NCBI GenBank assembly: GCA_964542475.1
Contig: CAZIUL010000009.1
Coordinates: forward strand, 65,818-129,817
Source: an uncultured Phycisphaerales bacterium
GTDB taxonomy: Bacteria; Planctomycetota; B15-G4; CAYZWU01
DNA length: 64,000 nucleotides
Direction: 5' to 3'
Notes under the pieces: model-generated
What the model was told of the DNA's origin: nothing
The model's database searches: none
What the model saw: the letters and a program-made list of their open reading frames with translations, nothing else
Made by a program: the position numbers and the translations under genes
Part shown: positions 1 to 44,756 of the stretch, one piece after another
Layout of the letters: each line of letters begins with the position of its first letter
How positions within the stretch are numbered: position 1 is the stretch's first letter

Positions 1-2650
1 TCGCAAGGACTTTTCCGGTGGAAGATACCTTGATCGTGTGTGCGCTCTCTATCATGATCTTTCCGCCGCCGGATCCGCCACCCGCACCATGCAGCCAACG
101 CGGCAGCTGAAAGGGCGGCTGGAAAGTCGTCTTGTATGTTCCTGTGAGCTCGATGCCTGAACCGCCTCCCCCGGCGCCACCCATAGATTCAGGCGGATAG
201 ATGATGAAAAGCGTACCGATGTCCGCACCGACAACATCCGTAACGAGGTCGTGGCCGTTCTTTAGCTCTTCAACTGTCAGTGTATCAGCGGTGTTGCCTG
301 TAATCCTGAAGATCCAGTCGTTGGTTGTATTCGGATCCGCATCATCATAGTTGGGATTGACTCGATAATCAACGAGGCCGTCAGGTGCCCACGAACTCAG
401 GTCGGCATCGATCTGGAGCTGTACAGGAGGAGTTACTGAAACCACGGTCCCGGTCAAAACGACGGGGTCGCCTCCTGGTCCGCCGACTGTCTCGTCAAAG
501 CTGTTGCCGCCCATGCTGATGCTGGCATCCCAGTAGGTGGCGCCGGCCACACCCGCTTCCGATCCACCGCCTCCGCCGCCACGACCGGCAGCGGCAAGCG
601 TCAATATGGTCTGGGCAACCGACAAAGGATCTCCGCCTTTCCCGCCCGGATCGAAAACAGTGCCGTCCTCCCCATCGCTGCCCCTGAGATATCCCACAAG
701 GTATGGGTCGCCCGCCTTGACAATGGGCGGAGGCGGAAAACCCGGATTCTTGGACTGATCCGTGAGCATCCCGCGATACAGCGCATGTTCCGTGTCGCTA
801 TAAACCCAAATCTTGTTTGGATCCACGTCATCGACCTTCTCGATGTAGAACGTGTTGTGGTTCGTTACGAAAACATCGTTGCCGTCGCCCATTCCAACGT
901 TCGGCTGGAGCATCTGGTTGACGATGAATGTTTCTATCGTGGAAAAATCCACATTTGTGTCCACGAGATAGTAATCCCCTATCTCTGTGCTGAGCCCGCT
1001 TACTCCCTCGAGATCCGGGTCCGTGGGGCTGCTGAACACGCCGCCGAAATCCCACTCAAGATCCAGGGTCTCGGGATCGCTGTCTGAAGGCACACATCCC
1101 CCCTGTCCTCCCATATAACCACCGGCATAGCACACACCACCCGTGGTACCATCCGGACCCGAGCTTATATCATCGCTCCCGCCCTGGCCGCCGTTCACTT
1201 CCACGGTCCCATCGATCTCAACATTACCGGTAACCAGAATGTTCAAGGCCGGGAAAGCGTCGCCGACTTTCGCTGCATCTGGAAGCGATTTCGGCTTGAT
1301 CGTCCAACCCGAAGGCACTTTGAAGTAGCTGAAGTTGTAGGTATAAGGTTCCCATACATTACCAGGAAAGATCTCCCAGGACGTTGGCAGATATACGATG
1401 TTGTTTGAGCCGTCGACAACAACACCCAGGTTAACATCCTGCGGGTAATCATCGGGTGGGAAAAACTTCCCGTCCGAACCGTCTCCTCCCCCGCCGCCGA
1501 GGGTCAGGTAACCTTCGTTCCCTTCTGCGTCCCAGTTGGCGGAAGTCGCGCTTGTGTCCTCGTAGTGTGAATTAATGAAGTCTTCCTCGATAGGATCTAA
1601 ATCCGGACTGCCGACAATCTGGAACAAACGCTCGTCATGTATTCCGTATGGATCATTGTTACACAGACCCTTGGTGTTGCCCGCAAGGTCGGACACGGTC
1701 CCGTCGGCGATCAGGTGGAGATACTCGCCCTGATTGAGTTCCGGAAGAGACTGCAGTTCATTGTGCGGCCAGAACTCCAGGTAAGTTTCGTATGGATCTA
1801 CCGAGTTCTTCACGAAAAGCCATGCGCCCGGAATGGATAAGGGTACGCCGTATTGATCGTAGTAAACAACATGCAGCGCATCCGATGTATGATCCGTTGA
1901 GTTTATCAGGTATATGCTTCCCCATGCGAGAAGAACCGGTTCGCTGTATCTGATTCTGAACATCGGCCCTGACTCAGGCAGGTCCTGGATTCCTATCTCA
2001 GGGATTTCGCCCTCCTTGACCAGCACCTCTCCACCATTGTCAATCAAGTAAAACTTTGGCTCGGGCCATTCAGGATTGGTGTAGAGATCATATATCGTAT
2101 CCGTTGTGATGAAAGCAACCGGCTTGCCCTTGGGTATGGAAACCTTCTTGCCGGAGGTTGATTTCACAACATTTTGATCCGGCGAAAGAGTGAACTTGAT
2201 CTCATAAGCCGCATGGTCCAGGAAACCAAAATCAGGGTTGCCCTCCGGAGTAAAGCTTGTAATAGGGACTATATAAAGAGTGGACTTGTTGACTACAAAC
2301 TCCACCGTGGCTCCGTGTCCTCCTCCCCAGTGGACAAGGTTATCCGGGTCATCACCGTCAGGCACGGTAATCGTTCTCACCTGGATTGAATTATGGTTGA
2401 CGGAGGCGGGATCGATATCATCGTTGAAATAGAGTATTACCGGAATGTTCACACCATCCAGCATTGGGAACTCGTTCGATGTGCCTGATCCGGTGGTGTT
2501 CCCGAAAATCTCGGAAAACCCGAAACCCGTCCCCTCGAATCCGAAATCTTTGTCACCACTGCCGCCTCCACCCCCACCGCCTCCGCAGGAAGCGAAACCC
2601 AAAAAAAGAAGCAACAATCCTAAGCCGGTAGCAAGTTTGGTCGTGTCCAT
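1..2650 (-). CDS. Giant predicted surface lipoprotein, paralogue A (N-terminal ~880 aa; continues beyond window start)
   Basis: Reverse-complement of 2560-2650 translates MDTTKLATGLGLLLLFLGFASCGGGGGGGG (signal peptide, lipobox Cys, poly-Gly). Frame stays open to position 1, and no minus-strand ORF in that frame appears in the track. The antisense plus-strand ORF 2445-2681 shows the complementary poly-Pro. Same architecture as 14477-18575 and 18668-21952. Confidence 0.55.
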   Translation of the reverse strand, partial: MDTTKLATGLGLLLLFLGFASCGGGGGGGGSGDKDFGFEGTGFGFSEIFGNTTGSGTSNEFPMLDGVNIPVILYFNDDIDPASVNHNSIQVRTITVPDGDDPDNLVHWGGGHGATVEFVVNKSTLYIVPITSFTPEGNPDFGFLDHAAYEIKFTLSPDQNVVKSTSGKKVSIPKGKPVAFITTDTIYDLYTNPEWPEPKFYLIDNGGEVLVKEGEIPEIGIQDLPESGPMFRIRYSEPVLLAWGSIYLINSTDHTSDALHVVYYDQYGVPLSIPGAWLFVKNSVDPYETYLEFWPHNELQSLPELNQGEYLHLIADGTVSDLAGNTKGLCNNDPYGIHDERLFQIVGSPDLDPIEEDFINSHYEDTSATSANWDAEGNEGYLTLGGGGGDGSDGKFFPPDDYPQDVNLGVVVDGSNNIVYLPTSWEIFPGNVWEPYTYNFSYFKVPSGWTIKPKSLPDAAKVGDAFPALNILVTGNVEIDGTVEVNGGQGGSDDISSGPDGTTGGVCYAGGYMGGQGGCVPSDSDPETLDLEWDFGGVFSSPTDPDLEGVSGLSTEIGDYYLVDTNVDFSTIETFIVNQMLQPNVGMGDGNDVFVTNHNTFYIEKVDDVDPNKIWVYSDTEHALYRGMLTDQSKNPGFPPPPIVKAGDPYLVGYLRGSDGEDGTVFDPGGKGGDPLSVAQTILTLAAAGRGGGGGGSEAGVAGATYWDASISMGGNSFDETVGGPGGDPVVLTGTVVSVTPPVQLQIDADLSSWAPDGLVDYRVNPNYDDADPNTTNDWIFRITGNTADTLTVEELKNGHDLVTDVVGADIGTLFIIYPPESMGGAGGGGSGIELTGTYKTTFQPPFQLPRWLHGAGGGSGGGKIMIESAHTIKVSSTGKVLA

Positions 2651-3013
2651 GAATACCTCTGGCAATGCCTCAAGTGGATAGTAAAGCCTCTATATTATGA
2701 ACTTACGCCTTCACGTTTTCATATGGAGCACAATAGTGTATCTTAATTCCATCAAAAGTAAAGGCGTCCTGTTAAGAGTGTTTTAGCCTGAAGGCAGATC
2801 CTGCAGGTTCGAAAGGCCCAAGCCACATTAAAACCTTAATGACTTTAATTTCAAAGAGTTAAAACGTACACTATCATATGGCTCGGGAGGTGAAGTATCG
2901 GTTCTTTAAGCCGTTTAAGCTATATAGCAATGTTACTACTAGATAGTATCATACTAAACCCTTGAACAAAACCGACTACCGTAAAAAAGATCCGCTGAAA
3001 ACAGGAGCAGACC

Positions 3014-4009
3014 ATGAAATGGATTCAAGCCGCGACCTTGTTGATACTGGTTGTATTGTTGGGTTGCGTCTGGTTGTTCTTTCAGAAGCTCGACAAGATG
3101 GATCAACGCCTGAAGAAAACGCTCAGCTCAACGGAAGTGGATGAACACATCGATGGCTTGAGAGAAAGAATTGCCGTGTTGCGCAGCGACACGAACAATA
3201 CAATCTCCGGAATCTACGACCAGATCTCCGCAATAGAAACAGGAAGCGGAAAGCAGCTGCGCGGTCCTAAAACACCGGGCTTCCTTCTAACGGACCTTGA
3301 GCGCTGGATTCATCTGAAAAAGGATGCGGCTATGGAGCCCGACAATGAAAAGGTGGCCAAGGACAAGATCGAGGAGACTATCAACGCGCTCTTAAAGCTG
3401 CATTCCGAGGGTGAAGAGGTCTTATCGCTGATCTTTGACCGCACCAAGTTAAACAGCGGTCCGAATGTCAGGGCCGCACTAATCAGGGACGTTCTCTGGA
3501 GGTTCGGGCCGGAAGCTGTGGATGGGCTAATGGAGCTGTTCATCGACCGGGAGTTTTCCAGCAACCTCAGGAACCTGGCAGCCGGTTCCGCGCTCAAGTC
3601 AGGGGGCAGAGAGGATGAGCTTCTCGATACCTTTGCCCGGCATCTTGAGGATCCCGAAGAGTTCATGACAATAAAAACGGGCCTTGTTCAAAACGTGTTC
3701 ATGGATCATCTCCACGAGCGAGTGGTGAAGCTCTTGATCGAAGGGGCACGGAATCCTCAATACCCACAGCCGCATCGTATCGCATGCCTGAAAGCCCTTG
3801 GCAGCTATGACCATCCTGAAGTGATCAAGGCGCTCGAAGAAATCATCTACATCGGTGAGGATCAGGTTTGGGTCGTCAACTGCGCTATCCAGTCTTATCA
3901 CAAGCTTATGGGTGAAAAAAGCCTCCCGTTCCTTGAAAAGCTGCTCGAGGAAGGCAGGGTGGACAACACCAACCGGGCGAAGATCAAGAATATCTTGGGC
4001 GAGTACTAA
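3014..4009 (+). CDS. Membrane-anchored HEAT/ARM-like repeat protein (N-terminal TM helix plus coiled coil)
   Basis: AGGAG 8 nt upstream of ATG 3014. Hydrophobic helix ATLLILVVLLGCVWLFF. Repeated alpha-helical LxxL units typical of HEAT-like repeats. Bidirectional terminator downstream. Confidence 0.5.
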   Translation: MKWIQAATLLILVVLLGCVWLFFQKLDKMDQRLKKTLSSTEVDEHIDGLRERIAVLRSDTNNTISGIYDQISAIETGSGKQLRGPKTPGFLLTDLERWIHLKKDAAMEPDNEKVAKDKIEETINALLKLHSEGEEVLSLIFDRTKLNSGPNVRAALIRDVLWRFGPEAVDGLMELFIDREFSSNLRNLAAGSALKSGGREDELLDTFARHLEDPEEFMTIKTGLVQNVFMDHLHERVVKLLIEGARNPQYPQPHRIACLKALGSYDHPEVIKALEEIIYIGEDQVWVVNCAIQSYHKLMGEKSLPFLEKLLEEGRVDNTNRAKIKNILGEY

Positions 4010-4227: not shown

Positions 4228-4950
4228 TCAGTTGCAGCACGTCCAGATTCCGGTATCGATTGCCGGGTTCGGGCTGCCGCTGATGGACAGGTTGTCGGAC
4301 ATTAGTCCGGCACCGCCGTTTTCATAAGCAGCCAGTCCGGCGGGAACAGCGGTCAAGCTGGTGTACTGCTGGATCTGGTTGCTCGTCTGCAGCACGTCAC
4401 CGCGATGGTTGCTCATGAACGCCCTGTTACCGCTGTTGCCGCGCGATATCGGCCATGCGTAGCATGCCCAGAAGTCCTCCGACGGGTCGCAGCCGCCTGG
4501 AACCGCAGCCCACCCTTGAGCAGCGCCGCCGTCTCCACCGTTCGGTTGCTCCGGATAAGGGAGACAGGCGCTATCGGGAATGTACATCAGGAAGTAGTAA
4601 CCCGACTTGTTCACGTAGCCGTTTCCATCGACAATACCCAGCGAGGATGAAAGTACGGCAGGGCTCAGCAGCACAGCGGGTGAGGCTGCGTCGCACCTGA
4701 TGGTAACCGTACCCGCCATTTCAGCGAAATAGCCGTACTCACCGATGCCGTCCATGTCCACGTCGATCGCCACCTGGGAATGAACCTGTGATTGTGCGGA
4801 AATCACGTTCCTCAGGGTTGCAATCGCTGCGGATTCGTTGGTGTTCAACCGCGCTGACAGAAGGTTGGGAATGGCAATGGATGCAATAATCGCGATGATC
4901 GCCACAACAATCATCAACTCAATCAAAGTAAAACCCCTATTCTTCCTCAC
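4228..4950 (-). CDS. Type IV pilin / pseudopilin with prepilin-type N-terminal methylation motif (240 aa, unusually large; C-terminal CC pair)
   Basis: N-terminus (V/M)RKNRGFTLIELMIVVAIIAIIASIAIP is the class III signal with a G-F cleavage site and Glu+5. GTG start with AAGGAGAG SD 7 nt upstream. A prepilin peptidase is encoded nearby. Confidence 0.8.
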   Translation of the reverse strand: MRKNRGFTLIELMIVVAIIAIIASIAIPNLLSARLNTNESAAIATLRNVISAQSQVHSQVAIDVDMDGIGEYGYFAEMAGTVTIRCDAASPAVLLSPAVLSSSLGIVDGNGYVNKSGYYFLMYIPDSACLPYPEQPNGGDGGAAQGWAAVPGGCDPSEDFWACYAWPISRGNSGNRAFMSNHRGDVLQTSNQIQQYTSLTAVPAGLAAYENGGAGLMSDNLSISGSPNPAIDTGIWTCCN

Positions 4951-8764: not shown

Positions 8765-9829
8765 TTAATGATGCGTCAACATCCGTTCCAGCTCATCGGT
8801 TTCCGTTGTATGTGACATGGCATCTTCGTATGTAATCTGGTTGCTGTTGTACAAGTTCGCCAAAGACTGATTCATCGTTACCATTCCAAACCTGTGGTTG
8901 GTCTGGATTATGCTGTATATTTGGTGGGCCTTGTCGTCACGAATAAGCGCCTTGACAGCAGGATTGGTCAGCAGGACCTCTGCTGACAGAATTCTTCCCT
9001 TGGCATTGGCCGCGGGCAGAAGCTGCTGACAAAATACTCCTGCCAGCGTAAAGGAAAGCATTGTCCTTATTTGCTGTTGCTGGTAATCAGGGAACACATC
9101 CACGATCCGGTTGATTGTCTGAACGGCATCTGAAGTATGAAGCGTTGCCAGGGTCAGGTGCCCTGTTTCCGACAGTGTCAAAGCCGCTTCGATTGTTTCG
9201 AGATCGCGCATCTCGCCGACCATGACAACATCGGGATCCTGCCTAAGCACCGAACGCAGCGCCTTCTTGAAGGCATGCGTGTCCGAGCCCACTTCCCTCT
9301 GGGTTATCAGCGCGTTCTTGTTCTGGTGCAAAAACTCGATCGGGTCCTCGATGGTCACTATGTGACAGCGCCTTTTCGCGTTGATCTGATCCAACATGGC
9401 AGCCAGCGTCGTGGACTTACCGGAACCTGTCGCCCCGGTAACGAGAATGAGGCCTTTTGGGAGGTTGCACAGGTTTTCGCAAACCTTGCGCGGCAGCCCA
9501 AGGTCATCGAAGTTATCGATCCTGTACGGTATGACCCGCAAAACCGCTCCGACGGCACCGCGCTGCACAAAAACGTTCGTTCTGAAACGGCCGAGCCGCT
9601 GCAGCCCGAAGGAAAAATCCAGTTCCAGCTCCTTTTCGAACTTTGCGATCTGATCGGAGGTCAATATCGAATAGATAATCGACTTCGTGTTCTCCGGCAT
9701 CAGAACATCGTACTCCGTGTTCTGAAGCACTCCGTTGATTCTCAGCTTTGGTGGTGACCCGGCAGCAATATGAAGATCCGATCCTCCCCTTTGAGTCAAC
9801 ACTTCAATCAGCTCTTGCATACTCAACAT
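8765..9829 (-). CDS. pilT: Twitching-motility (retraction) ATPase PilT
   Basis: 354 aa. Walker A VTGATGSGKSTTLAAM. PilT-type AIRxLIRE-like segment ALIRDDKAHQIYSIIQT. Immediately upstream of pilB. Confidence 0.85.
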   Translation of the reverse strand: MLSMQELIEVLTQRGGSDLHIAAGSPPKLRINGVLQNTEYDVLMPENTKSIIYSILTSDQIAKFEKELELDFSFGLQRLGRFRTNVFVQRGAVGAVLRVIPYRIDNFDDLGLPRKVCENLCNLPKGLILVTGATGSGKSTTLAAMLDQINAKRRCHIVTIEDPIEFLHQNKNALITQREVGSDTHAFKKALRSVLRQDPDVVMVGEMRDLETIEAALTLSETGHLTLATLHTSDAVQTINRIVDVFPDYQQQQIRTMLSFTLAGVFCQQLLPAANAKGRILSAEVLLTNPAVKALIRDDKAHQIYSIIQTNHRFGMVTMNQSLANLYNSNQITYEDAMSHTTETDELERMLTHH

Positions 9830-10103: not shown

Positions 10104-12146
10104 TCAACCCTCATCTTCTTCTTTGTTATACTTGGCGATGATTGCTTCTGCAATCTTGGATGGGACCAGATCGTAGTGGGAAAACTCTATGGTATAGGAC
10201 CCCTCACCGGCTGTGATTGACCTCAGATCCGTTGAATATGTCTGAATTTCCTGAAGCGGCACCGTAGCCTTGATGATCTGAATGTCGCCGATGGAATCCA
10301 TTCCTTGAATCCTTCCCCTTCGTCCGTTCACGTCAGAGGTGATGTCCCCCATGAACTTCCCGGGAATCGAGACTTCAATATTGGCGATCGGCTCAAGCAA
10401 AACAGGCCGCGCCTTCATAAACGCGTCCTTGAAAGCTTTTGTGGCAGCAACCTTGAAAGAAGCCTCTGATGAGTCAACGTCGTGGTAGGAACCGTCTACC
10501 AATCTCGCCTTGACATCGACCACTGTATAACCCGCAATCACCCCGGCATCGAGCACTTCCCTTATCCCCTTCTCGACCGCTGGTATGTACTGCCTGGGTA
10601 TAACGCCGCCGACGATCTCGTCGGAAAAAACGAAACCCTCTCCTCTCTCAACGGGTTCAAGGATCAGCTCAACTTCACCGTACTGGCCGTGACCGCCCGT
10701 CTGTTTCTTGTGCTTGTGATGCCCCCCTGATGTCCCCTGTATTGTTTCTTTAAGAGGAATCTTCGGCAGCTTCGTCTCAACTTCCACCTTGTAGCGCGAC
10801 TTCATCCTCTTGATGATGTTTTCCAGGTGAAGCATACTTATCCCAAGAATGATCATTTCAGCGGTCTGGGGATCCCGCTTGGCTTCGAATGTAGAGTCCT
10901 CGGTGTTCAATTTTTTCAGGGCTGTACCGAGTTTTTGTTCGTCATTCCGGCTTTTGGGAGAAACCGCAAGAGAAACCATCGGCGCAGGCATGTCCATGGC
11001 CGGCACAACGACATTACTCTTTTCATCGGTTACCGTGTCGGAGTTCTCCAACGTTTCAATCTTCGAAAATACCAGTATGTCACCCGCCACAGTCTGCTCT
11101 TGAACAGGCTCGAGCTCCTTTCCCTGGGGGCGGAAGACGTTACCGATCTTCTCGTTTTTCTCGGTCCGTGGATTGTATATGATCAGGCCGGGACTGATGG
11201 ATCCGGTGTACATCCTGATGTAGTTCATCTTGCCCACATAAGGATCTGTCACCGATTTGAATACGAAACCAACCGGGTCATCGCTTTCCCTGGGATCAAG
11301 GCGGATTTCTTCGTCTCCCTTGGAAGCGGAGCGAAAAGGTCCATCCAATGGGGAAGGAGCGTATTCAGCCAGGAACTCCATCGCTTCCGCTACTCCAAGA
11401 TCCTTTTCCACGGCCGTGCAAAGCACGGGCACCAGGCTCTTGTTGTTGATGGCAATCCTTAGCAGTTTTTTCAGATCCGCCGGTTCGATGGTTTCGCCCT
11501 CGAGATATCTCTCCATCAGCTCTTCGTCGTTTTCGACCAGCGCTTCAATGAGATCCAACCTTGTTTGTTCGACCCGATCCTTCATGGAGTCGGGCGCTTT
11601 TTCTGGAGCGTTGAGGCAATCGACCAGGGTGGAAACCTTGCCCCCGGTCGTATCCGGAATAAAGACAGGATAAATGTTGCTGCCGAAGAACTCCCTGAGG
11701 TTCCCTATGAGCCCGTCCCAATCAACGTTTTCCATGTCGACCTTGTTGATGATGATCACCTTGGCAAGGTCCAGCTTACCGGCTTCCTCCCACAGCTTGC
11801 GTGTATTGTATAAGATACCGTTGAAAGCATTGATATTGACCAACGCTGTTTCAGCGGCATAAAGCGATGATATGGCTTCACCGATGAAATCGGGGTATCC
11901 GGGTGTATCCAACAGGTTGATTTCGTGCTCGTTGTGGTTCAGGTGCATGATTGACAGGTTGATCGAATGTTTCTTGTCCTTTTCTTCAGGATCGTAATCC
12001 GAAACGGACGTGTTGTCATCGATCTTGCCGAGCCTGGTCACAGCCCCTCCCTTGAAAAGAAGCGCATCGACCAGAGAGGTTTTCCCTGAGTCCGCCCCAC
12101 CGATAAAGGCTATGTTTCTTATAGCTTTTGCCTCATAGTCAGCCAT
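10104..12146 (-). CDS. Elongation factor G-like GTPase (EF-G paralogue, divergent P-loop)
   Basis: 680 aa. Five-domain EF-G architecture (G domain, then domains II to V). G1 motif GGADSGKTS instead of the canonical AHVDAGKTT. DTPGYPDF (G3) and NKVD (G4) present. Confidence 0.75.
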   Translation of the reverse strand: MADYEAKAIRNIAFIGGADSGKTSLVDALLFKGGAVTRLGKIDDNTSVSDYDPEEKDKKHSINLSIMHLNHNEHEINLLDTPGYPDFIGEAISSLYAAETALVNINAFNGILYNTRKLWEEAGKLDLAKVIIINKVDMENVDWDGLIGNLREFFGSNIYPVFIPDTTGGKVSTLVDCLNAPEKAPDSMKDRVEQTRLDLIEALVENDEELMERYLEGETIEPADLKKLLRIAINNKSLVPVLCTAVEKDLGVAEAMEFLAEYAPSPLDGPFRSASKGDEEIRLDPRESDDPVGFVFKSVTDPYVGKMNYIRMYTGSISPGLIIYNPRTEKNEKIGNVFRPQGKELEPVQEQTVAGDILVFSKIETLENSDTVTDEKSNVVVPAMDMPAPMVSLAVSPKSRNDEQKLGTALKKLNTEDSTFEAKRDPQTAEMIILGISMLHLENIIKRMKSRYKVEVETKLPKIPLKETIQGTSGGHHKHKKQTGGHGQYGEVELILEPVERGEGFVFSDEIVGGVIPRQYIPAVEKGIREVLDAGVIAGYTVVDVKARLVDGSYHDVDSSEASFKVAATKAFKDAFMKARPVLLEPIANIEVSIPGKFMGDITSDVNGRRGRIQGMDSIGDIQIIKATVPLQEIQTYSTDLRSITAGEGSYTIEFSHYDLVPSKIAEAIIAKYNKEEDEG

Positions 12147-12587: not shown

Positions 12588-13469
12588 TTATCTCCATAGG
12601 GATGAAGCAAATCGCGGCCATTCCTCCAAGAGCTCGATGATCTCCGCCCTGAAGAATATAACGGTCACGACCCCCAATGAAAGGAAAGGCCCAAACGGGA
12701 CCTCATGCTTTCCGGTGATTAGCCTGTACGGCACGCCAACTATGCTGCCTGCCGCACAGCCCGCGACAAATACCATCAAAACACCTTCCCATCCGAACAT
12801 ACCACCCACAAAAGCCATGAACTTGACATCTCCCATGCCAAGGGCCTCCTTTTTCAGCGCGGCCTTTCCGATCCACCCAACGGCAAGGAGGGTTCCCCCG
12901 CCTACCAGAGCGCCGCCAAGCGAGGAGATGAGGCCCGCAAGATGGGCGTTTAAAGCCTCGATGAAAAGGCTGCTGTTCTCCTGCAAGCCCGGCAGGAGCG
13001 CGCATGCCAACGGTGCTGCCACAATCCCGGAATAGGTAATCTCATCCGGAATGATCTTGAAATCCAGGTCGATGAAAGTAACCACCAGCACGGTTGCTAG
13101 CATGTACATCTGGATGATGTAGATTCCTAAAAGTTGAAGACGTTCGGACCCGCTGTTGATGATGTCGGGTGCATGGCCGATGGTCAGGCACACGAATAGT
13201 ATTGATGTGAGGGCTTCGACCAAAGGATATCGCCACGAAAGCAAGCCGCCGCAAAAACGGCATCGGCCGCGCAAGCGGACGAACGATACCACTGGTATGT
13301 TGTCATACCATGGTATCGATTTTCCGCAAGCCGGGCAAAACGACCTCATTGGGCGTGTTACTGTAAGGGATTCCCTTGGAAGCCGGTAGATGAGAACATT
13401 GAGAAAGCTGCCGACCATGGCCCCAAAAACGCCCGCGACAACCGAAAACAAACAGATCGGAAAGCTCAT
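12588..13469 (-). CDS. pilD: Prepilin peptidase / N-methyltransferase PilD (A24 family)
   Basis: N-terminal tetra-Cys zinc motif (CPACGKSI...CRFCGG). Multi-TM body with the catalytic Asp region (GMGDVKFMAFVGG). 293 aa. Confidence 0.9.
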   Translation of the reverse strand: MSFPICLFSVVAGVFGAMVGSFLNVLIYRLPRESLTVTRPMRSFCPACGKSIPWYDNIPVVSFVRLRGRCRFCGGLLSWRYPLVEALTSILFVCLTIGHAPDIINSGSERLQLLGIYIIQMYMLATVLVVTFIDLDFKIIPDEITYSGIVAAPLACALLPGLQENSSLFIEALNAHLAGLISSLGGALVGGGTLLAVGWIGKAALKKEALGMGDVKFMAFVGGMFGWEGVLMVFVAGCAAGSIVGVPYRLITGKHEVPFGPFLSLGVVTVIFFRAEIIELLEEWPRFASSLWR

Positions 13470-13503: not shown

Positions 13504-14367
13504 TCATTGGCAGTCGCAATTGATCCATATATGACTGAACGTGTTTTCTATCCTATTCCCGCCAAAATCGGTAAAGCCCAGAAGATCCCTCCAAAGCTCG
13601 TAGCGGCGCCCTTTCAGAAAACCCCCTGACGGCTTCACATCAACAAACGAACTGCCGGTCCCTGCTGTGCTGATCGAACAGACAAGGTCCAATCCGCCAA
13701 AGTCATTGTCAACCTCTCCGCTCCCGCCTTTTGGCTCTTCACCAATTTTAACTACCTCATTCGAAACACGCATACCCGCTCTTTGGCCCAGCACGGAACC
13801 GGGAAACAAGGGCTCTGAAAACTTCAGCCGTAAAAGCGACCCCGGAGTCACATCAAGGCCGCGAATGTTTATTTCTTGCACAGGCTTGCTGTTCACCGCC
13901 ACGAGCACCGGGGCTGATCCGGGATCACAATCAACAAAATGAGAAAGTCCTACAGGTTCGCCGGATACGGTACTGAAAGAAGATGAATAACAGCGGTCAA
14001 GGTGAAACCCCCCTGTTGATAAAACAGCAATATATGATGGAAACCCATTGAAGCAGACCTTGTATTCGCATCCTGGAAGGAGACCTGAGTCCGAGCAATC
14101 CTGTGCTTGCGGAAGAGCGGGGAAAAACCTGGCCTCGCTGCCGTTGACAATCCAGCGCCCCCGGGCTGCCTCTCCATCCGCGTTCAAAATCGACACCGTA
14201 TCCGGGTTGATTGATGACCTGTCGACTTCTTTGTTGAATTTGAAAACCAGCGCTTCGTTCAGACAAACACCGTTTTTCTCTTCCTGGATAAAACTCAAAA
14301 GTGAAAAGTCGGAAGCTCTTCCGCAGCCAATCATAATCAGGCACAAAAAACAGAGAGCTTTTTTCAT
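13504..14367 (-). CDS. Cys-rich predicted lipoprotein, function unknown
   Basis: Likely start at internal ATG giving MKKALCFLCLIMIGCG (lipobox LIMIGC). Rest soluble with about 10 Cys. Co-directional between pilD and the giant lipoprotein genes. Confidence 0.5.
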   Translation of the reverse strand: MKKALCFLCLIMIGCGRASDFSLLSFIQEEKNGVCLNEALVFKFNKEVDRSSINPDTVSILNADGEAARGRWIVNGSEARFFPALPQAQDCSDSGLLPGCEYKVCFNGFPSYIAVLSTGGFHLDRCYSSSFSTVSGEPVGLSHFVDCDPGSAPVLVAVNSKPVQEINIRGLDVTPGSLLRLKFSEPLFPGSVLGQRAGMRVSNEVVKIGEEPKGGSGEVDNDFGGLDLVCSISTAGTGSSFVDVKPSGGFLKGRRYELWRDLLGFTDFGGNRIENTFSHIWINCDCQ

Positions 14368-14476
14368 GAACAGGGCCCGTATCAAATCGTCATCACGAAG
14401 CAGGGGGACAGGTTTTGATTTGTAACGTATCAAAACCCGTCCCCCTGCATTTTAAATCATGTCGGCAGTGCTGTCG

Positions 14477-17400
14477 CTAATACTTAAACCTCATCCGCAC
14501 GTAGTCGATTTGTGGTTTTTTGCTTTCCGGACTCAGGGTGCCAATCCAAGCTGAATCGAGCCTGATACGAAAACGGATGAACTGCTTCCCGGATAACTCG
14601 GTCAGGTCGTGTGTCCATGTGTCTTCGTTAACAACAGCTGGGTCTTCGTTCGCAACCTTTGATCCCGGGATCAGCGCATCGGTTCCCTGGAACTGAAAAG
14701 CCACATGGTTGTCCTCCGGGATATAGTCGATTTGGGCCACCTTACTATCCGGGGCTTCAACCTTGAAGTCGTTGGAGTCCTCATCATCGGGAGGAGTTGC
14801 ACCGTTCAACACATAATGACCGATAGTATATGCCTCAGCCCACGACTGTCCGCCTATGGTGGTTTCCCTGACCCCCCTGAAACCGTCCAGCAAGTCAGGA
14901 AATGTACCCGGTTCCGGGTTTTCGAACCAGAAATACGGCGGGATTTCATCGTTGATAGGGTTCCTGTCGATAATACGCCCCATGTCGATCCACTTGGACA
15001 CTGCATACGTATGCGAGCTTATGGTGGACTTGGTCTTATACGGATCCACAAGGCATTCAGTGGTTCTGGGAAACTCACCATAGTAGTTCTTGGGAGTGCC
15101 CTTGACCCGGACCTCAAAACGGGAATAGTAGACTTGCTGGCCTGCATTATAATGCTTCATCTTGTCAGGCTCCCATTGGATCTTGCAGATGTCGCATTCA
15201 ACCGATGTCCATTCTTTCGGCTCTCCATCAGGCCACCCCACCATGACCAGGTCGTTCTCCGGATCAGGCACCATAAGTTGAATGAGGCCGTATCCTCCAT
15301 ACCCGCCGTCTCCGCGTGACCAGGAACAAAAAGCCGAATAATTCAGGAGCCCGTTGCCTGGTTGGATTTTGCATGGCTCCAGGATTCCAACATAACCCAC
15401 TCCAGTGGTTTCCTTGGCGTCATCTCCCCAACCCCCAGCCACATTGAGACAACCGTTTTCTTCGATTGTGATGGTCTTTGCGGAGTTCAGGATGATGGCT
15501 CCTCCGCTGCCACCTCCCGCACCGCCTCCGAAACTGGAATGGCCGATCACTTCACCGCCCCCTCCTCGCCCGCCCATAGCATATATACAGCCGGTGCTCT
15601 CTATGCTGATTCCCTCCAGGCTGTGGATTGCGATGGAGCCGCTGCCGCCGCCGCCGCCGCCGCCCTTGGAATCGTAACAGCTTGCAGCCTTGGGAGGATT
15701 TTGCGCCGCGCCCTGACCCTTTGTAACCGGGCGCATGCTGTCCAGCCGTGAACCACCGCCACCCCCGCCCTGTCCGCCGATAAGCTCTTTCACCTCGCCG
15801 TATTCACCGATGAAATCGTTGTCCTCATCTCCATCCTTGAAAACCAAGTTTCCAATATCCCCGGGATGAGGTGCATGATCAATGTGCTCATCACCGGTGT
15901 TTCCGAACTCGTTTATCTTCGTCTGTTCATCAAGAGGATCGCCTTCATGCCATGTAGGATCGTATTCGTAAGATCCATCCCACCACTCCCAGACGTCCCT
16001 GATATAAAACTCCCCATCTTCATCCACACCATACTGCCCCTTCCCAGGATATCCTATATGTCCTTCCTGGTAAAAGGAGCCTCCTCCGCCGCCTGCGCCG
16101 CGGCTGTCAGGATCATTTTTCGAACCCTGCCAGGGAACAAACTTGTCCTTTGCGCCGCTCTCACCCCCAAAACCTCCTGTCTGCTTGATGTTGCCTGGAC
16201 CATAGCCTCTCTCGCCGGTCGGCACGGATTGAAGGTCTGTCAGGTTCTTGAAATTCGGGGGGATGGGAGGCTGACCCATGCCGCCGCGGCCGCCGCCGGG
16301 TCCCGGGGGGCCGCCAGGCGTCGGCATGAACGCAGAATTGAAAGTGGTGTCATTTGTTCCATTCTGCCCGGAAACGTCGATCGTGCCCCCTATCGTCACT
16401 TCTCCTGTAGCCGTAAAAACCAATGGTTTTGATCCCATGGCCATCACAGTCACACCGTACGGTATATTGATCTCCCTGAAATGGAACTCACCGGTCTTGA
16501 TAATAACAGGTTTTGTTATGTCAGGAGTTGCACCGTTGTTCAGAGGCAGCGGCTGGTAATCAGTATCCAGCATCACGATCGATGCCACACCAACCACGGG
16601 GCGGAAATCTCCGAGTTCCCCGCTACCGCTGAGACCGAGCCCGGCAAGAAGGTGCTTGTACTCAGGAGGTTGGCCATCCAAATCCTGAACGTTCCAGATA
16701 GCTCTGGCGTTGGCGAGCTCGTGCTTAGTCTGTTCCATCTCGTTATCGAGGAACTCTTCCATGAAGAAGTCTTCGATAACCGCATCACCTGGACCGGGAT
16801 CATAGGTTTCGAAGCTTCCAACGAATTCGGCACCGTACGGATCGAAGCCATAGTTTTCGTGCATGCTTCCACCGCTCAGGTTCTTCAATGAAAAACGCAC
16901 CATCATCTCGATGCGCTTTCCTATCGGGAGAATTCCGGAAGGTTCGAGCTTGACCGTAGCCCCGTGATATGAGTTGTTCAAAAGAGTAACCGTTCCACCC
17001 AGCTCGTAATGCCTGAGCGCGAAGTCTACCCTTCTATCGGAGGTCAGCTGTGCATCGTCGATCGCATGGGTTTCCTTCACAGACCCGGTTTGCAGGTCCA
17101 GATGGACCACCTCCATAGCGTTGGCCTCATAAAGAACCATTGTGTCGATATGAAAAAAATCCAAGCTGCAGTAATCGCCTGAAAGGCCGGACACCACGGT
17201 CTCACAGGTCAGGTTGGAGTTGATCTTTTCGATGGATGAGATGGCGTTCGGCGTGCCGGGATCATATACCCTAAGGCCGTAAAGAGCACCGTCCCTGCCC
17301 ATGGTCAGATCCACGAAGTCTCCAAGGCCGGCTACCAATGTTCCGAGCACGACCACAGCTCCGGTGTCCACGTCGATTTCCAAAAGGGAAGTTCCAAGGT

Positions 17401-18575
17401 CGTTCAAACCATAAAGCTTGCGCTGCAGCTCGGTATCCAGACGGATACAGATCGAACTTGCCTTGACTCCCAAAGGGCTGAATAACCTTTCGTTGGACAG
17501 CTCGCAGATCGTAAACGGCGGAGTGCCTGAAATATTCTCGAAGTCCGCGTCATAAAGGGCGGTCTCTGAGCAGACCAGCATCATGTGCTGTTTCGTTGCC
17601 ACAATCGACTTGACACCTACCTTGGTCATGTTGAAAAACGTATACCCCAGAAACTCGAACTCATCCGAGCCTGCTTCCATCATCGCAAGATATCCAAGCT
17701 CGGAGAATGTCTCGTCAACAGCCGTGTACATGACTGAATCATCGTATGCGAGAAATATGTTCTCCTCACTGACGGTATCCCCATCAAGGTCCGAGCCCTG
17801 GATGTTATCGCTGTCAAAATCAAGGGGCTGATCGAACTGAATCTCGATGTCCCTTGGCGCGGGAAAACCCTGCAACTCGCCTGAAACACTGTTGATGGGG
17901 AAATCCACGGTGCCGTCCACAGGATCGGTGGTCACCACTCCGGGTGGCAGGACCGGCTGGTTCTTGAAGAAAAAAGCAGGCATTTCTTCGGGCCAGGTTG
18001 TAAACTCGATCGGAAAATCCACACCTGGATCAATGGCAACCAGATCTTCGATACTCCCCGATGTTCCGGTCGGTACAAAAACGGTGTATGTATAACCCGG
18101 CAGAAGACCCGGGACGTTTTGGGCCACCGCATTTATCGAAAGATCGATCTCCCCCGTGGGTATATAGGGAGTAAAAACAACTACGTTGTCCATGATCTCG
18201 TATGTGCCCCTGGCAACGATTAGGTTCTTTGTCCCATCGAGAGCAACATCCGGGCCCTGATAATCCAAGCCGGGGTTGGCATTGATGAGAATGTTCCCTG
18301 AATGGACATCACCCGCTACCGGATCGGAAAAGGTGAACAGGACCTGCTGGCTCAACGGCACATTCGCAGGAGGTGTTTTCGTAGCTCCTGACAAGTCGGT
18401 GTATTCGGGAAAGGTTATGGATGTCAGCGTCTGGCCTTTGTATCCGGCCCCTCCATGTCCGCCGCCGCCGCCACCGCCGCCGCCGCCGCAGCTCGACAGG
18501 GCAAACGTAAACAGGAACGAGCAAAACAAAACCACTGAAAACCGAGCAGGATGAAATGCCTTAAACCGTTTCATG
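14477..18575 (-). CDS. Giant predicted surface lipoprotein, paralogue B (~1365 aa) with poly-Gly tether and internal Gly-rich / beta-helix-like repeats
   Basis: Likely start MKRFKAFHPARFSVVLFCSFLFTFALSSCGGGGGGGGGGHGG (AAGGA SD upstream). The track ORF begins 17 codons earlier at a GTG/TTG-type start. Internal tracts GGQGGGGGGS, KGGGGGGGSGS, GGRGGGGE, and the motif GGAIILNSAKTITIEENGCLNVAGG. Collagen-like PGGPPGPGGGRGG. Confidence 0.7.
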
Positions 18576-18667
18576 GTTCCAATTCCTTTATATTGAAAAC
18601 CGAGCCATACAATAAAAACTCGCATTTCCTGTACAAAAACTACGGCATCAGCTTCCAGATGCCATTG

Positions 18668-21600
18668 CTAATCTTCAACGATCAGATAAGGAATCACAAT
18701 CGAGTCTATGCTGGGAACCACCCCAGCATCCACATTTGCTGTAAACAGGGCCTTGAAACGAATATAATTGTAATTCTTATATGCCATATTCACATTGAAA
18801 CCCATAACCTCGCCAGGCTGAACCCACCCTGATTGACTGCCCGGGATATAAGGATTGGCCGTGGTTTGAAAGCTGAGGTCCAAGCCTGTCCCTTCAGGGA
18901 TATTTTCCAGATCCGGCAATATAATCGGGTTAATGAACTGCATGTCATAACCGCCTTGGATATCAGTGCCGAGATAAGGCGACACTATTGTAGATTTCCG
19001 TTTTACGTAGTCGAAGATCATGAAATACCGCGAATTGTCGCCGTATTTACCTGTAAAATTTGTCAAGGGGCCCTGGGCATTCGGATATTTGCCTGGTTGT
19101 GTACAACCGTAGACAAGGCCAATGACGGAGTTTGGACTGGTAGGATCGTCACCGCGTGTGTATACCCTGAACCTCGGCAGCGCGCTGGACAAGATCGCTG
19201 CATGATAGGTAAAACCGTTACTTATTGATGCGCTGGCCTTCGTGTTCGGGTCCGTCCTGTACTCGATAAGCATGGACTGGTTCGAGTCGTATTCAAAGCC
19301 CGGATTTCCGACCGGTTTGTCAAACTCCGGCCACGGTACGTAGTAAAAAAAATTCTGACTCCCAGCGTTTTTGGGCGCGTAGAGGTTATGCCAGTCCATT
19401 GAATAGGGCACACCATCATTGTTTTTCCCGAGCACAACTGTATGGACATAAGGCTGGCGGTTTTGATTGAAATTCTGAACGAGACCGCTTTGGGGGTGGT
19501 CCGGGATCCCATCGCAATTATCGTCGTTTGACAAAGGTACAATGTTTGTCAATGAAATGAGAATCGACATCTTCTCAATCACTGAGTTCGTTATCCAGCC
19601 GCCGATAGGAGCCCAGGAAAGGCCGATCAGATCCAGAACCGTATCCTCATAAGCAAGTATATCCGGGGAACAATCGCCCCGCCGGTATGTGTGTTGAAAC
19701 CGGCTCCCGTATGAACTGTTAACCGGCGTACCCGTGCCGAAGGGGAGTGCGAACAACGGATCCGGATAGTGCGGCGAGGACGGGGGTGGTGGATTCCATT
19801 CGTCGAAAATATGTTCAATGAACTCCACTGAATGTCCGCTCAAAAAACCGTTCAGGCCTAACGCGATGTCAGCGATGTGTGGACCATAGACCATGGGATC
19901 GCCTTGGCCATCGACCTGGTGGTCATAAAAGATACCACCCGAGATGGGCGGGTTTCCCACAGTTCCTGTTTCCGGCAAGCCCATGAACCTGTGCACCAAA
20001 ACGCCGTTCTCCGGACGGCTCTCCGGGTCAGGCGCTGCTTGAATGTTGAACTCGTACTTAAAATCCACCGCGGGCGGAAACGCCCCGTAACCCGTGCTGT
20101 CCGAATACGCCACGCACCATTTGCTCCCTTTATCGAAAAAGTAAGCGGGCAGCCCCAAAGCCTGTCCCCCGAGGCTCATGACCCCCAACACGCCGATCTT
20201 TTCCAGATCCTCTTCTACGCCCTCGGGCAGGTCATCGCCGAAAGAATCGTAAAAATCATTCAAGACCTGATCAGGGGGCACCGTGCGAATCGTCATGCGA
20301 AGAGATTTGGGCTGACCACCGAAGCCTACCAGCTGTTCCCCGGTAAGGCCGAACTGGTCGTCAACTATCGGTTCGAATGAAAGAATGCTGTTGCTTTTAC
20401 GTGCTGCCGTACGACCGACTTTCATGTAGTCGAAACCGGGATCTTCGATGTTCACGGAGCCTTTACAAACATAAAAAGTTTCGTACGGTCTGAACGAACC
20501 CGGATCCATGGCTTCTGAAAACCGGAAAGAAAGCCGCCAGTTGGAATCTACAGAATTGGTTCCGCTGGAGCCGGGATCGTAGTCAACTTCCTCCCAGATC
20601 TCATCGTTCTCGTTCCACTCCTCCCAGATCACGAAATTGAAAAGATCGGAGTTCTTGGCATCCTCAAGATCATCATCGTCTTTAGGGTAGTTATCCGGGT
20701 CTACGGCGGCCAAAGGATCTCCGGTTCCTGGGATCGGTTCGAAAAACTCGGCCCGCTGCAGGTGGTACTCGTCCGGATCCTGGACGCCTGGAATACCGGG
20801 ATCAGGCGGGACGTTGAACTGTCCCACTATATAAAGTGTGTCCGGCGTGTTGTGATCGACGCGTACTTTCTCCTCTGTCGCCGTATTTTGGCGCAGCGTC
20901 AACAGTGCTCCCGCCCACTCCCCATCGCCTCCGTTTGCTTCATCGTTGAAGCTGTTTTCCGGGTTCTGGGGGTCCCAGATCGGGCCCATATCCGGGTCAA
21001 CTATCGCTGTCAATCCGGAACCGTTGCCCACGGAACCCTCCTCGTCCTGATCGGAAGGATACCTTACTTCCCGTATGATCCTGGGCGGTGTCAGGTCAGG
21101 GAGAAAACCATTGAAAGAAATGTCTCCGAAGTTGATGAAATCGAGATAGGTATTTCCGGGATTGAAGCCTACCGGCTTGCCCGGTGTTCCCAGAAGATCT
21201 TCCCTCGCGCTCAATGAGGTGCCGGTAGCGGATTGGAGAACGTTGTTTCCTGTTCCTTCCGAGTAAATCCTGATTCTCAGGTATCCATCCTGAGAGGCTA
21301 TTGGGTTCCCTGCCTGGTCGAATATGAGGGGGCTAGCTGGAAAACCCACCGCACCCTCGACAACCGGATTCAAAACCAACCTGTCGCCAAACAGCACCGC
21401 TTCAACCGAAATCAAATTATCAATATCCGTCCTGATCTGGACCGGGCTCTGAGCCGTTAAAAAACCGTTACCGTCTAGGTTAAGGCACTTGCTGTCCAGC
21501 TCCTTCGAAAAATCCAGGATCAACACACTGTTTCTTGGAATAATCGGTACCTTGAAAGACGAGTTGGGGAGATCCGTGAGACCGAAAGAACCAAGGTCGA

Positions 21601-21952
21601 GCTTCTTCACTTGGTTAAGCGGCATGCCAGGATCGAAAAGCGATTTGGGGTAACCGCTCACCAGGAGTCCGGTGATGGGGTCCGTCTCGATAATGGTTTC
21701 CGGGCTGACCACTTCAGCAACATTCCCCGCAGGATCAAGCAGTGACCTTCCGAAATATATCTCTTCCAGATAAAATTCGCTATCCCCTTGTTGCCCACCG
21801 GGATTGGAAGAACCACCTCCTCCACCCCCGCCGCCCCCGCCGCCCCCGCCGCCGCATCCCCCAAGAACCACGGCGACGACAAGAAAAGAACCAAAGCATA
21901 CCTTACCGAATCTAACTGCTGTGGACCCACTCATGTAACTTACCCTCAGCAA
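18668..21952 (-). CDS. Giant predicted surface lipoprotein, paralogue C (~1090 aa) with poly-Gly tether
   Basis: N-terminus ...MSGSTAVRFGKVCFGSFLVVAVVLGGCGGGGGGGGGGGGGGSSNPGG (ATG at 21934 with GAGG upstream, or TTG at 21952). Long Asp/Gly/Pro-rich body. 42 bp downstream of paralogue B. Confidence 0.7.
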   Translation of the reverse strand: MLRVSYMSGSTAVRFGKVCFGSFLVVAVVLGGCGGGGGGGGGGGGGGSSNPGGQQGDSEFYLEEIYFGRSLLDPAGNVAEVVSPETIIETDPITGLLVSGYPKSLFDPGMPLNQVKKLDLGSFGLTDLPNSSFKVPIIPRNSVLILDFSKELDSKCLNLDGNGFLTAQSPVQIRTDIDNLISVEAVLFGDRLVLNPVVEGAVGFPASPLIFDQAGNPIASQDGYLRIRIYSEGTGNNVLQSATGTSLSAREDLLGTPGKPVGFNPGNTYLDFINFGDISFNGFLPDLTPPRIIREVRYPSDQDEEGSVGNGSGLTAIVDPDMGPIWDPQNPENSFNDEANGGDGEWAGALLTLRQNTATEEKVRVDHNTPDTLYIVGQFNVPPDPGIPGVQDPDEYHLQRAEFFEPIPGTGDPLAAVDPDNYPKDDDDLEDAKNSDLFNFVIWEEWNENDEIWEEVDYDPGSSGTNSVDSNWRLSFRFSEAMDPGSFRPYETFYVCKGSVNIEDPGFDYMKVGRTAARKSNSILSFEPIVDDQFGLTGEQLVGFGGQPKSLRMTIRTVPPDQVLNDFYDSFGDDLPEGVEEDLEKIGVLGVMSLGGQALGLPAYFFDKGSKWCVAYSDSTGYGAFPPAVDFKYEFNIQAAPDPESRPENGVLVHRFMGLPETGTVGNPPISGGIFYDHQVDGQGDPMVYGPHIADIALGLNGFLSGHSVEFIEHIFDEWNPPPPSSPHYPDPLFALPFGTGTPVNSSYGSRFQHTYRRGDCSPDILAYEDTVLDLIGLSWAPIGGWITNSVIEKMSILISLTNIVPLSNDDNCDGIPDHPQSGLVQNFNQNRQPYVHTVVLGKNNDGVPYSMDWHNLYAPKNAGSQNFFYYVPWPEFDKPVGNPGFEYDSNQSMLIEYRTDPNTKASASISNGFTYHAAILSSALPRFRVYTRGDDPTSPNSVIGLVYGCTQPGKYPNAQGPLTNFTGKYGDNSRYFMIFDYVKRKSTIVSPYLGTDIQGGYDMQFINPIILPDLENIPEGTGLDLSFQTTANPYIPGSQSGWVQPGEVMGFNVNMAYKNYNYIRFKALFTANVDAGVVPSIDSIVIPYLIVED

Positions 21953-44303: not shown

Positions 44304-44663
44304 TTGATCCCATCCAAACGACTACCGCAACGAAAAGGGCCGTGCGCCGTTTATCGAGGAATCCGCACTTCCTGAAAAACCCGCTGAAGCTCAGTCCGAG
44401 TACTCCCTCACACCTAAGATCAAAATGCTTATGGCTGCTCCCGTCAGGGCCTGACCAGGTTCACACCTTCTTACCGTAAAGGAACTCTTTCCTCAACACT
44501 CCAATCGGGCAACCGGAAAGCACCGATATCCCCTCAAAACGGCATCACCCCCGCGTATAGAGGATTTCGGGTACAAGGCACCCCTAATGCCCCGGCTGCA
44601 CGGCCAAATTATATATGCTAAAAACCTCTCTGCCGGTACACATCGTACAAGCAGGTTGATGGC

Positions 44664-44756
44664 TGGCGGAGAGGGCGGGATTCGAACCCGCGAGGCAGGG
44701 AATACCCGCCTACACGCTTTCCAAGCGTGCTCTTTCGGCCACTCAGACACCTCTCC
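44664..44756 (-). tRNA. tRNA-Ser (anticodon GGA), class II, CCA encoded
   Basis: The reverse complement folds by hand into a cloverleaf. Acceptor stem GGAGAGG/CCTCTCC. Anticodon loop TTGGAAA. Long variable arm. T-arm GCGGGTTCGAATCCCGC. Confidence 0.8.

Follow-up and report, generated by a model that had tools for sequence, protein, structure and literature searches.

The left end of a 64,000-nt stretch of DNA from an uncultured Phycisphaerales bacterium (GCA_964542475.1, contig CAZIUL010000009.1, positions 65,818 to 129,817; the whole stretch is called the window here) raises the question of what is encoded by gene A, a minus-strand reading frame that starts at position 2650 with a lipoprotein-like, glycine-rich N-terminus and leaves the window before it ends. 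A preliminary description had presented A as the third giant paralogue of a family whose two other members, genes B and C, are separated from it by a set of pilus genes. The reading that we modestly favour is that A is an outer-membrane-anchored lipoprotein which displays a beta-helix/beta-sandwich head on a stalk of immunoglobulin-like (Ig-like) domains and has a binding or structural role at the cell surface. The part of the gene that lies in the window is the following.

2-2650, minus strand: gene A, codons 1-883 of 1134, an open frame whose translation gives the first 883 residues of the complete protein (P0001)

Minus-strand translation from the ATG at 2650 gives 883 codons with no stop down to base 2, and stop codons within 1-2560, which had been feared as a possible refutation, are therefore absent. 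The N-terminus reads MDTTKLATGLGLLLLFLGFASCGGGGGGGGSGDK, identical to the earlier reading, and the plus strand of 1-2650 carries, as described, only short antisense open reading frames (ORFs), the longest of which encodes no more than 100 amino acids (aa). Public contigs with the same locus were found through an exact-identity look-up of the HEAT-repeat protein encoded beside A. One of these, L001, belongs to an ENA metagenome scaffold of 129.9 kb. Its overlap of 14,009 nt with the window contains 0 mismatches, and it continues for a further 6,987 nt. The upstream extension and full translation that had been proposed as a check could thus be carried out: the ORF ends 756 nt past the window edge, and the gene spans 3,405 nt on L001 and codes for 1134 aa, the window lacking the last 251 codons and the stop (L001 6233-6987). 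Gene A is intact. The open frame and the full gene on L001 bear out the view of A as a real lipoprotein-type gene truncated by the window edge, whereas the word "giant" overstates a protein of 1134 aa that is large only. A pseudogene or a spurious ORF is ruled out because full-length orthologues at 27-51% identity keep the conserved motifs. The mature protein has a calculated mass of 118 kDa and is acidic, with a pI of 4.05, 14% Gly and 10% Asp.

The first 57 residues comprise three elements, for two of which the local confidence of an AlphaFold2 (AF2) model, given as the predicted local distance difference test (pLDDT), is part of the evidence.

2585-2650, minus strand: lipoprotein signal peptide, residues 1-22, with K5 in the n-region, a hydrophobic core and the lipobox F-A-S-C ending in Cys22, by a PS51257-type rule
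2561-2584, minus strand: run of eight Gly after Cys22, residues 23-30, a putative flexible tether and possible sorting motif, pLDDT <50
2480-2560, minus strand: conserved Phe/Gly-rich segment, SGTGFGF..FGNTTG.GTSN.YP, residues 31-57, predicted to be disordered from the family alignment and pLDDT <50

The signal was judged by a PROSITE PS51257-type rule that asks for a Lys or Arg near the N-terminus, a hydrophobic core free of charges, a lipobox of the form [LIVMFWSTAG]2-[LIVMFYSTAGCQ]-[AGS]-C and a Cys at position 15-40. A has the basic residue as K5 in MDTTK and the hydrophobic core and lipobox in LLLLFLGFAS-C22, and so carries a canonical signal-peptidase-II type signal with the lipobox FASC. 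The rule is also satisfied by B (C29), C (C27) and a smaller neighbouring gene, D, and by 18 of 24 Met-starting members of the A family and 14 of 16 of the B family. Six ORFs in the window fit it, and only A, B and C among them have poly-Gly after the Cys; two other clear candidates, gene D (starting at 14385) and an ORF at 63949, have none. A six-frame scan of the 64 kb located only three sites with a Cys and a Gly run, all at the N-termini of minus-strand ORFs (2650, 18574 and 21934/21952). A Gly/Ser-rich stretch after the Cys is kept in nearly all A orthologues in the family alignment, and the strict Cys+Gly pattern recurs in 77 of the 144 distant relatives that were inspected. Since the signature amounts to a lipobox plus a Gly/Ser tether that is found in these distant relatives too, it is not evidence of paralogy but a generic lipoprotein tether. 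The sequence C-GGGGGGGG in A, and likewise the corresponding sequences of B and C, also agrees with the motif of lipoproteins that depend on a type II secretion system (T2SS), namely a Gly/Ser-rich (GGG) or an N/D-rich stretch at P2'-P4' (PMC12802150).

Residues 1-57 are modelled as disordered throughout (pLDDT <50). The Phe/Gly-rich segment shrinks to an FG[WFY][DN]P motif in distant orthologues, and conservation of residues 31-57 without structure suggests a docking or sorting peptide. At the other end, A closes with ...KYTNLKIDKVVIVVSQ, a tail that is neither hydrophobic nor basic, and no C-terminal sorting signal or beta-barrel (PEP-CTERM, type IX secretion C-terminal domain or autotransporter) was found, NCBIfam and Pfam giving no match.

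A first AF2 model, built with 9 sequences, had a pLDDT of 54 and its Foldseek output was meaningless; the model was rebuilt with 42 sequences, whereupon the mean pLDDT was 83.7, the predicted template modelling score (pTM) 0.75 and the fold all-beta. In the model, mature A begins with tandem Ig-like domains and ends in a C-terminal beta-sandwich; between them lies a Gly-rich beta-helix-like module that a family-specific insert interrupts. The parts encoded in the window are listed here; those that involve comparison with other families rest on hidden Markov model (HMM) profiles.

2093-2473, minus strand: Ig-like (Big_5-like) beta-sandwich domain 1, residues ~60-186, from hhalign comparison with the N-terminal domain of the C family
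1613-2068, minus strand: second beta-sandwich region, residues ~195-346, from AF2 strands (pLDDT 80-93) and Foldseek tandem-Ig alignments
1091-1597, minus strand: central Mid module, residues 352-520, common to B and hundreds of other proteins
197-1006, minus strand: A-family-specific insert, residues ~549-818, with small beta domains, from the family alignment
2-193, minus strand: first part of the Gly-rich beta-helix-like rungs (residues 820-883), truncated at the window edge, from the internal repeat, AF2 and the HMM of the Gly-rich C-terminal module (Cmod)

Residues 61-190 are modelled with a pLDDT of about 70-93, and in Foldseek the N-terminal ~300 residues match tandem Ig-like folds, best LdtMt2 (3vyn_B; E 1.2e-4, probability 0.99). 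The Mid module has the consensus EDF..YED..SA.W ... YNFTSF.IP.GWTVKP ... PL.I..TG.V.I.GT.DVSG, closes in A with a first rung, PALNILVTGNVEIDGTVEVNGG, and has no match in Pfam or NCBIfam. The insert that follows bears an invariant LQPNVG.G motif and is lacking in compact relatives of ~870 aa. Beyond it, residues 820-960 form two full three-strand rungs of ~45 residues, each with a Gly run before it (consensus GGG.GGG-I.I.S...I.V...G.I.A.GG.GG); the rung strands occupy 864-882 and 908-926 and one further strand 955-960, pLDDT being >90 in every case. Some high-confidence Gly runs are modelled without helix or strand and could be polyglycine-II helices like those of ALK or phage gp38. The unit at 851-895 aligns with that at 896-940 at z = 9 against shuffles, none of 500 shuffles reaching the observed score, and only the first of the two lies partly within the window. 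The Gly-rich repeats that had been noticed in the body of the protein are thereby upheld, but not as "GxGxF" repeats: residues 31-57, to which that description applies, are conserved and predicted to be disordered and form no folded repeat. The model ends with a beta-sandwich over residues ~1000-1134 that closes with ...FVRFKIKM...KIDKVVIVVSQ.

The last ~780 residues of A found no match in Pfam, NCBIfam, PHROGs, the PDB (sequences and folds) or BFVD. A profile search of PDB sequences returned one spurious low-complexity match (E 0.09), and Foldseek comparison of the 42-sequence model with the PDB and BFVD returned Ig-like folds only; a phage "glycine-rich domain" protein was rejected as an analogue, its Foldseek E of 0.06 being too weak for use. 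For A, B, C and D together, Pfam, NCBIfam and PHROGs yielded sub-threshold Big_5 matches and one uninformative PHROG match (to B), and whole family alignments and one repeat unit of a 7437-aa relative (Pfam only) gave nothing beyond sub-threshold Big_5. As to a catalytic signature, the family alignment holds no invariant His and no invariant Cys besides that of the lipobox, and no enzyme family in Pfam or NCBIfam matches A even at an E of 1; invariant Asp, Glu, Asn and Arg residues are present.

The two genes with which A had been grouped are these.

14477-18574, minus strand: gene B, encoding a 1365-aa predicted lipoprotein with the lipobox LSSC and ten Gly, a remote homologue of A
18668-21934, minus strand: gene C, encoding a ~1088-aa predicted lipoprotein with the lipobox LGGC and 14 Gly, with apparently only its end domains in common with A and B

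The mechanical ORF starts of B and C lie 17 and 6 codons upstream of the Met with which a proper signal peptide begins (18575-18625 and 21935-21952, minus strand), and public gene calls start B at Met18 (1365 aa). BLASTP aligned 160 residues of A and B at an E of 0.014-0.02, with two further collinear segments below significance, and gave nothing between A and C or B and C; profile methods were needed because so little was found in this way. For the family profiles, 10 matches were collected for A, 18 for B and 84 for C, the few that are named being almost all "hypothetical protein" of metagenome-assembled genomes (MAGs) of Planctomycetota. Comparison of the A and B families by hhalign aligned A352-516 with B600-762 (probability 99.8%, E 1.3e-28). 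The Mid HMM matches the B protein of the window at residues 595-774 (E 2e-13), the Cmod HMM matches it at E 1e-11 with the modules in the same order as in A, and the full A-family HMM matches it at E 3e-20 in a small local database; profile comparison of a C-terminal segment of the two gave a probability of 90%. The likeness of A to C, by contrast, is confined to the N-terminal Ig-like domain (hhalign probability 96%, E 4e-9 to 5e-9) and a marginal match over the C-terminal ~70 residues (probability 66%), the hhalign E values for the two parts spanning about 1e-5 to 1e-9; that of B to C is confined to a C-terminal segment (probability 92-94%, E 8e-8 to 7e-7), and the C-family HMM matches neither A nor B.

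These results indicate that A and B are genuine remote homologues over the Mid module and the Gly-rich rungs, and that C is most probably a mosaic relative that has only end domains in common with them. The proposal of a third paralogue therefore stands for A and B as remote homology and falls for A and C beyond the end domains, as does the appeal to the shared N-terminal signature. Alignment of the three to define conserved domains, which had also been suggested, does show collinear modules in A and B once profiles are used; similarity over most of the length is not borne out, either by BLASTP or by the C-family HMM.

An exhaustive profile search with the A family returned 916 representative clusters at E <=1e-3, among which ~25 are full-length A orthologues of 1070-1500 aa; most of the best 150 of the 916 match at the Mid and/or Gly-rich positions. 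In many relatives of ~860-900 aa the match is limited to profile positions 1-525 and 827-1010; these relatives have the architecture of A without the insert, and their N-termini match Big_5 above threshold. In other fusions the Gly-rich module follows Kelch, Peptidase_C25 and Beta_helix domains, and six to eight copies of it stand in a Desulfopila protein of 7437 aa named "Ig-like domain-containing protein". With such varied N-terminal partners and this repetition, it has the character of a mobile extracellular module. When one genome per GTDB species was scanned for motifs, no more than three loci came up, each in a MAG of Planctomycetota or Phycisphaerales, and the A family, which is uncharacterised, appears to be largely restricted to Planctomycetota MAGs.

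If A is a surface-displayed lipoprotein of the kind proposed at the outset, it would be exported through Sec, lipidated on Cys22 and freed of its signal peptide, and the lipid would anchor it in a membrane. With Gly instead of Asp as residue +2, the outer membrane is the most probable site. The beta-helix and beta-sandwich head would be kept off the membrane by the Gly tether and Ig-like stalk and would serve in binding, adhesion or cell-surface structure and not in catalysis. The presence of Big_5 in relatives and the fusion of the Gly-rich module to Kelch, Peptidase_C25 and Beta_helix domains form a pattern typical of extracellular display modules. Several points tell against this reading. 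The +2 sorting rule is that of E. coli, and Planctomycetota may not obey it; lipidation, localisation and surface exposure are all predicted from sequence and architecture; the C-terminal ~780 residues have no analogue of known function, so that "binding or structural" is drawn from architecture; the invariant Asp, Glu and Asn, in a fold that often bears polysaccharide-active sites, make an enzymatic role possible; and the conservation of the A block together with housekeeping genes, described below, hints at a core envelope role and not at an accessory adhesin.

Comparison with known surface proteins bears on the same question. At its N-terminus A has a beta-sandwich that aligns with Big_5-like domains (PF13205), and the Ig-like fold expected of Big_5 is seen in the A domain from the AF2 model, the Foldseek probability of 0.99 and the Big_5 matches of relatives. 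Many distant relatives match Big_5 above threshold, and NCBI names such relatives "Ig-like domain-containing protein". A itself gives no Big_5 match even at an E of 1 (gathering score 23.6 bits), and within the A family 3 of 9 members match, at best with an E of 0.006 and none above threshold; the domain would in any case cover at most ~120 of the 1134 residues and is uninformative on function. The N-terminal BIg domains of LdtMt2 (PDB 3vyn) and antibody Fabs likewise resemble A in their tandem Ig-like beta-sandwiches, aligned over ~300-340 columns, but the likeness is that of a generic Ig-like fold (target-normalised TM-score ~0.2-0.3, identity ~10%), and the transpeptidase catalytic domain of LdtMt2 has no counterpart in A.

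The chlamydial Pmp proteins, beta-helix adhesins from the same Planctomycetes-Verrucomicrobia-Chlamydiae (PVC) superphylum, are similar to A in being cell-surface proteins with Gly-rich parallel beta-helix rungs. Their motif, which we take to be GGA[ILV]/FxxN, has an echo in B, where "GGAI" occurs. A gives no match to the Pfam Pmp models at an E of 1 or better and, unlike the Pmp proteins, has an N-terminal lipid anchor instead of a C-terminal autotransporter barrel; the resemblance is a lead only. The Slam-dependent lipoproteins of Neisseria (TbpB, LbpB, fHbp and NHBA) are like A in joining a lipidated Cys to a beta-rich binding domain through a flexible Gly-rich linker, and these linkers hold the binding domain off the outer membrane. 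They are unlike A in their beta-barrel and handle lobes, much smaller size, need for the Slam translocon and unrelated body folds, and no Slam (DUF560) gene was seen in the 64-kb window. Surface lipoproteins of this general class have been reviewed (PMC7857515).

The genes around A bear on how such a protein might be exported. Those needed for what follows are listed here.

2651-3013, no strand: divergent intergenic region of 363 bp between A and the HEAT gene, from the ORF coordinates
3014-4009, plus strand: 331-aa divergent protein with a hydrophobic N-terminus and HEAT repeats (HEAT_2 E 2.4e-9, above the Pfam cut-off)
8765-9829, minus strand: first PilT-like T2SSE ATPase gene
13504-14385, minus strand: gene D, encoding a ~293-aa fourth lipoprotein candidate with the lipobox MIGC and no poly-Gly, between B and the prepilin peptidase gene
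25919-27013, minus strand: second PilT-like T2SSE ATPase gene
31930-33780: secretin with a GspD N0 domain
33901-35343: PilO/T2SSB
36087-37118: PilM

The divergent arrangement of A and a HEAT-repeat membrane protein agrees with what had been described, as does the position of the pilin, PilC, PilB and PilT block between A and the other two Cys+poly-Gly ORFs. A scan of 2651-3013 for promoters and terminators found consensus-level promoter-like matches only, no more than expected by chance. The HEAT protein begins with LLILVVLLGC|VWLFF (3014-3070, plus strand), which formally fits the lipobox rule and is ambiguous; the hydrophobic stretch continues past the Cys, which makes a transmembrane anchor the likelier reading.

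The pilus-like set runs from pilin (4228-4950) through a TPR protein, PilC, PilB, PilT, an EF-G-like gene and PilD (12588-13469) to D, B and C. The machine looks like a type IVa pilus, with PilM, PilO, a PilQ-type secretin and two PilT, rather than a T2SS, and no GspN/AsmA-like gene was seen in the 64-kb window. Housekeeping genes (for an MnmE-like GTPase, pantothenate kinase, Obg and RNase G) are interspersed with the pilus assembly genes. The EF-G-like gene, between pilT and the prepilin peptidase gene (10104-12146, minus strand), encodes a 680-aa GTPase that may be a divergent elongation factor G (EF-G) paralogue rather than the main fusA. Gene D has no Pfam match, and is weakly similar (E 4e-5) to an ORF in the same position in L008 / DHS20C15 MAG; by eye, its N-terminal stretch has a likeness to a Big_5 motif.

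Beyond A, L001 continues with DHH/DHHA1 and metallophosphoesterase genes, then PMT_2 genes of the glycosyltransferase C (GT-C) type and cutA. A close relative, L007, in which A is 46% identical, has the same gene order. Two deeply diverged MAGs (A 27% and the EF-G-like protein 42-45% identical) retain B, a small ORF, PilD, the EF-G-like gene, A, DHH, Metallophos and PMT_2, with no pilin/PilCBT/HEAT block between the EF-G-like gene and A; in DHS20C15, B is preceded by another large ORF, truncated at the end of the locus, whose homology to C is not assumed. The EF-G-like gene adjoins PilD in L007, L008 and L010 (42-45% identity in L008 and L010), and the HEAT gene stays beside A in L007 and L009, TatD taking its place in L008. 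Pilus or secretion genes are missing from the surroundings of three more distant B/C relatives. The linkage is thus real in one lineage, yet it takes in housekeeping genes and is not general, so that it is weak evidence for a tie to the pilus; the idea of tight functional coupling to the pilus genes was downgraded on account of the three distant B/C relatives without pilus neighbours and of the housekeeping genes in the block.

Some further features of the window stand beside this locus. GT-C-type genes surround it, two PMT_2 near A (L001 1-4173), of which one is kept in L007, L008 and L010, and two YfhO-like (51500-54442, minus strand; 58926-61589, plus strand); these membrane glycosyltransferase-like genes might glycosylate envelope proteins or lipids. 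A sigma-54 gene (39868-41331, minus strand) lies ~1.5 kb from a phosphotransferase system (PTS) EIIA-type gene (37918-38379) on the same strand, the two being separated by a pseudouridine synthase gene (39030-39776), and the pilus genes could be under sigma-54 control. A large bacterial signal recognition particle RNA (129 bits), followed by two tRNA-Ser genes with the anticodons GGA and CGA, occupies 44340-44975 (minus strand), and the PrkA, DUF444 (YeaH-like) and SpoVR triad, a conserved stress-response cluster, occupies 46549-51290 (minus strand).

Three other explanations of A have to be weighed. It is possible, though rather unlikely, that A, B and C are cargo of the neighbouring type IV pilus/T2SS-like machine, leaving by the secretin route with the Gly run after the Cys as a sorting motif. 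Poly-Gly in the window is confined to the three large lipoproteins and missing from D and the ORF at 63949, which speaks for this reading; Gly/Ser tethers are common in lipoproteins of other export routes, Neisseria TbpB and fHbp among them, which speaks against it. In Acinetobacter baumannii, T2SS-dependent lipoproteins carry a "GGG" motif at P2'-P4' (CGGGGDGY in InvL), and the native motif is required for GspN/T2SS-dependent surface localisation, but the motif is insufficient for export (PMC12802150). The classical case of a surface lipoprotein exported by a T2SS is PulA of Klebsiella (PMC7857515). InvL and PulA share with A the lipobox signal and a Gly run right after the acylated Cys (PMC12802150), and they too are large extracytoplasmic proteins whose genes lie beside a secretin/pseudopilin-type machine; their mature parts, however, have no sequence or fold in common with A, which is known from genes alone. 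The machine next to A includes a secretin, PilB/GspE-like and PilC/GspF-like proteins, pilin and PilD, and the three Cys+poly-Gly genes flank pilin, PilC, PilB, PilT and PilD, with the secretin, PilO/T2SSB and PilM further along; it is nevertheless of the type IVa pilus kind with PilT, and GspN was not among the genes seen in the window. The order B-PilD-EF-G-like-A is retained in the two deeply diverged MAGs, but the housekeeping genes within the block (DHH, Metallophos, EF-G-like) mean that the synteny may be simple inheritance, and the more distant B and C relatives lack pilus or secretion neighbours.

The same synteny could be taken to mean that A faces the periplasm and, with B, C and D, forms a lineage-specific envelope complex, a scaffold of the pilus apparatus or of the unusual planctomycete envelope, which we consider distinctly unlikely. 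The block of C, B, D and A is conserved with PilD across genomes in which the EF-G-like protein is only 42-45% identical, and the genes occur as single orthologues in conserved position, which is core-gene-like and unlike variable adhesins; yet distant relatives are unlinked to pilus genes. A docking function could be served by the FG-rich segment that follows the tether, which is conserved and disordered. No similarity to known pilus-alignment or pilotin proteins was found in Pfam or NCBIfam, and an acidic multi-domain protein of 118 kDa whose stalk is Ig-like would more typically be displayed on the surface. Least probable, and very unlikely, is that the Gly-rich beta-helix is a surface-tethered catalytic domain, such as a polysaccharide lyase or hydrolase, that degrades polymers. 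Right-handed beta-helices commonly bear polysaccharide-active sites, but this one has only about three or four rungs, and the top Foldseek matches in the PDB include no pectate-lyase-like or other enzyme beta-helix. The invariant Asp, Glu, Asn and Arg of the family would suit a catalytic role, as would one distant relative that pairs the module with Pfam Beta_helix and another that pairs it with Peptidase_C25; against these stands the lack of any enzyme-family match in Pfam or NCBIfam noted above. In favour of a catalytic role, too, Planctomycetota are rich in polymer-degrading enzymes (PMC11131199).

Gene A encodes an uncharacterised but fairly ordinary kind of predicted lipid-anchored, all-beta envelope protein. 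About two thirds of it is a confidently modelled Gly-rich beta module that is in no domain library or structure collection, and this module recurs in hundreds of clusters, mostly from Planctomycetota, behind varied N-terminal fusions, which makes it a candidate for a new domain definition. A bolder and quite improbable proposal would be that the Mid module and rungs (~300 residues without inserts) are an undescribed extracellular domain family, that A to D are planctomycete-specific core envelope lipoproteins, and that Cys-GGG directs such proteins to the surface through the pilus/secretin machine; if true, T2SS-type lipoprotein export, so far shown in Gammaproteobacteria, would extend to the PVC group. 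The Cys-GGG N-termini beside pilus and secretin genes echo the sorting motif of T2SS lipoproteins in Acinetobacter, and this link offers an idea of how large lipoproteins may be placed on the surface of Planctomycetota, whose envelope biology is poorly understood.

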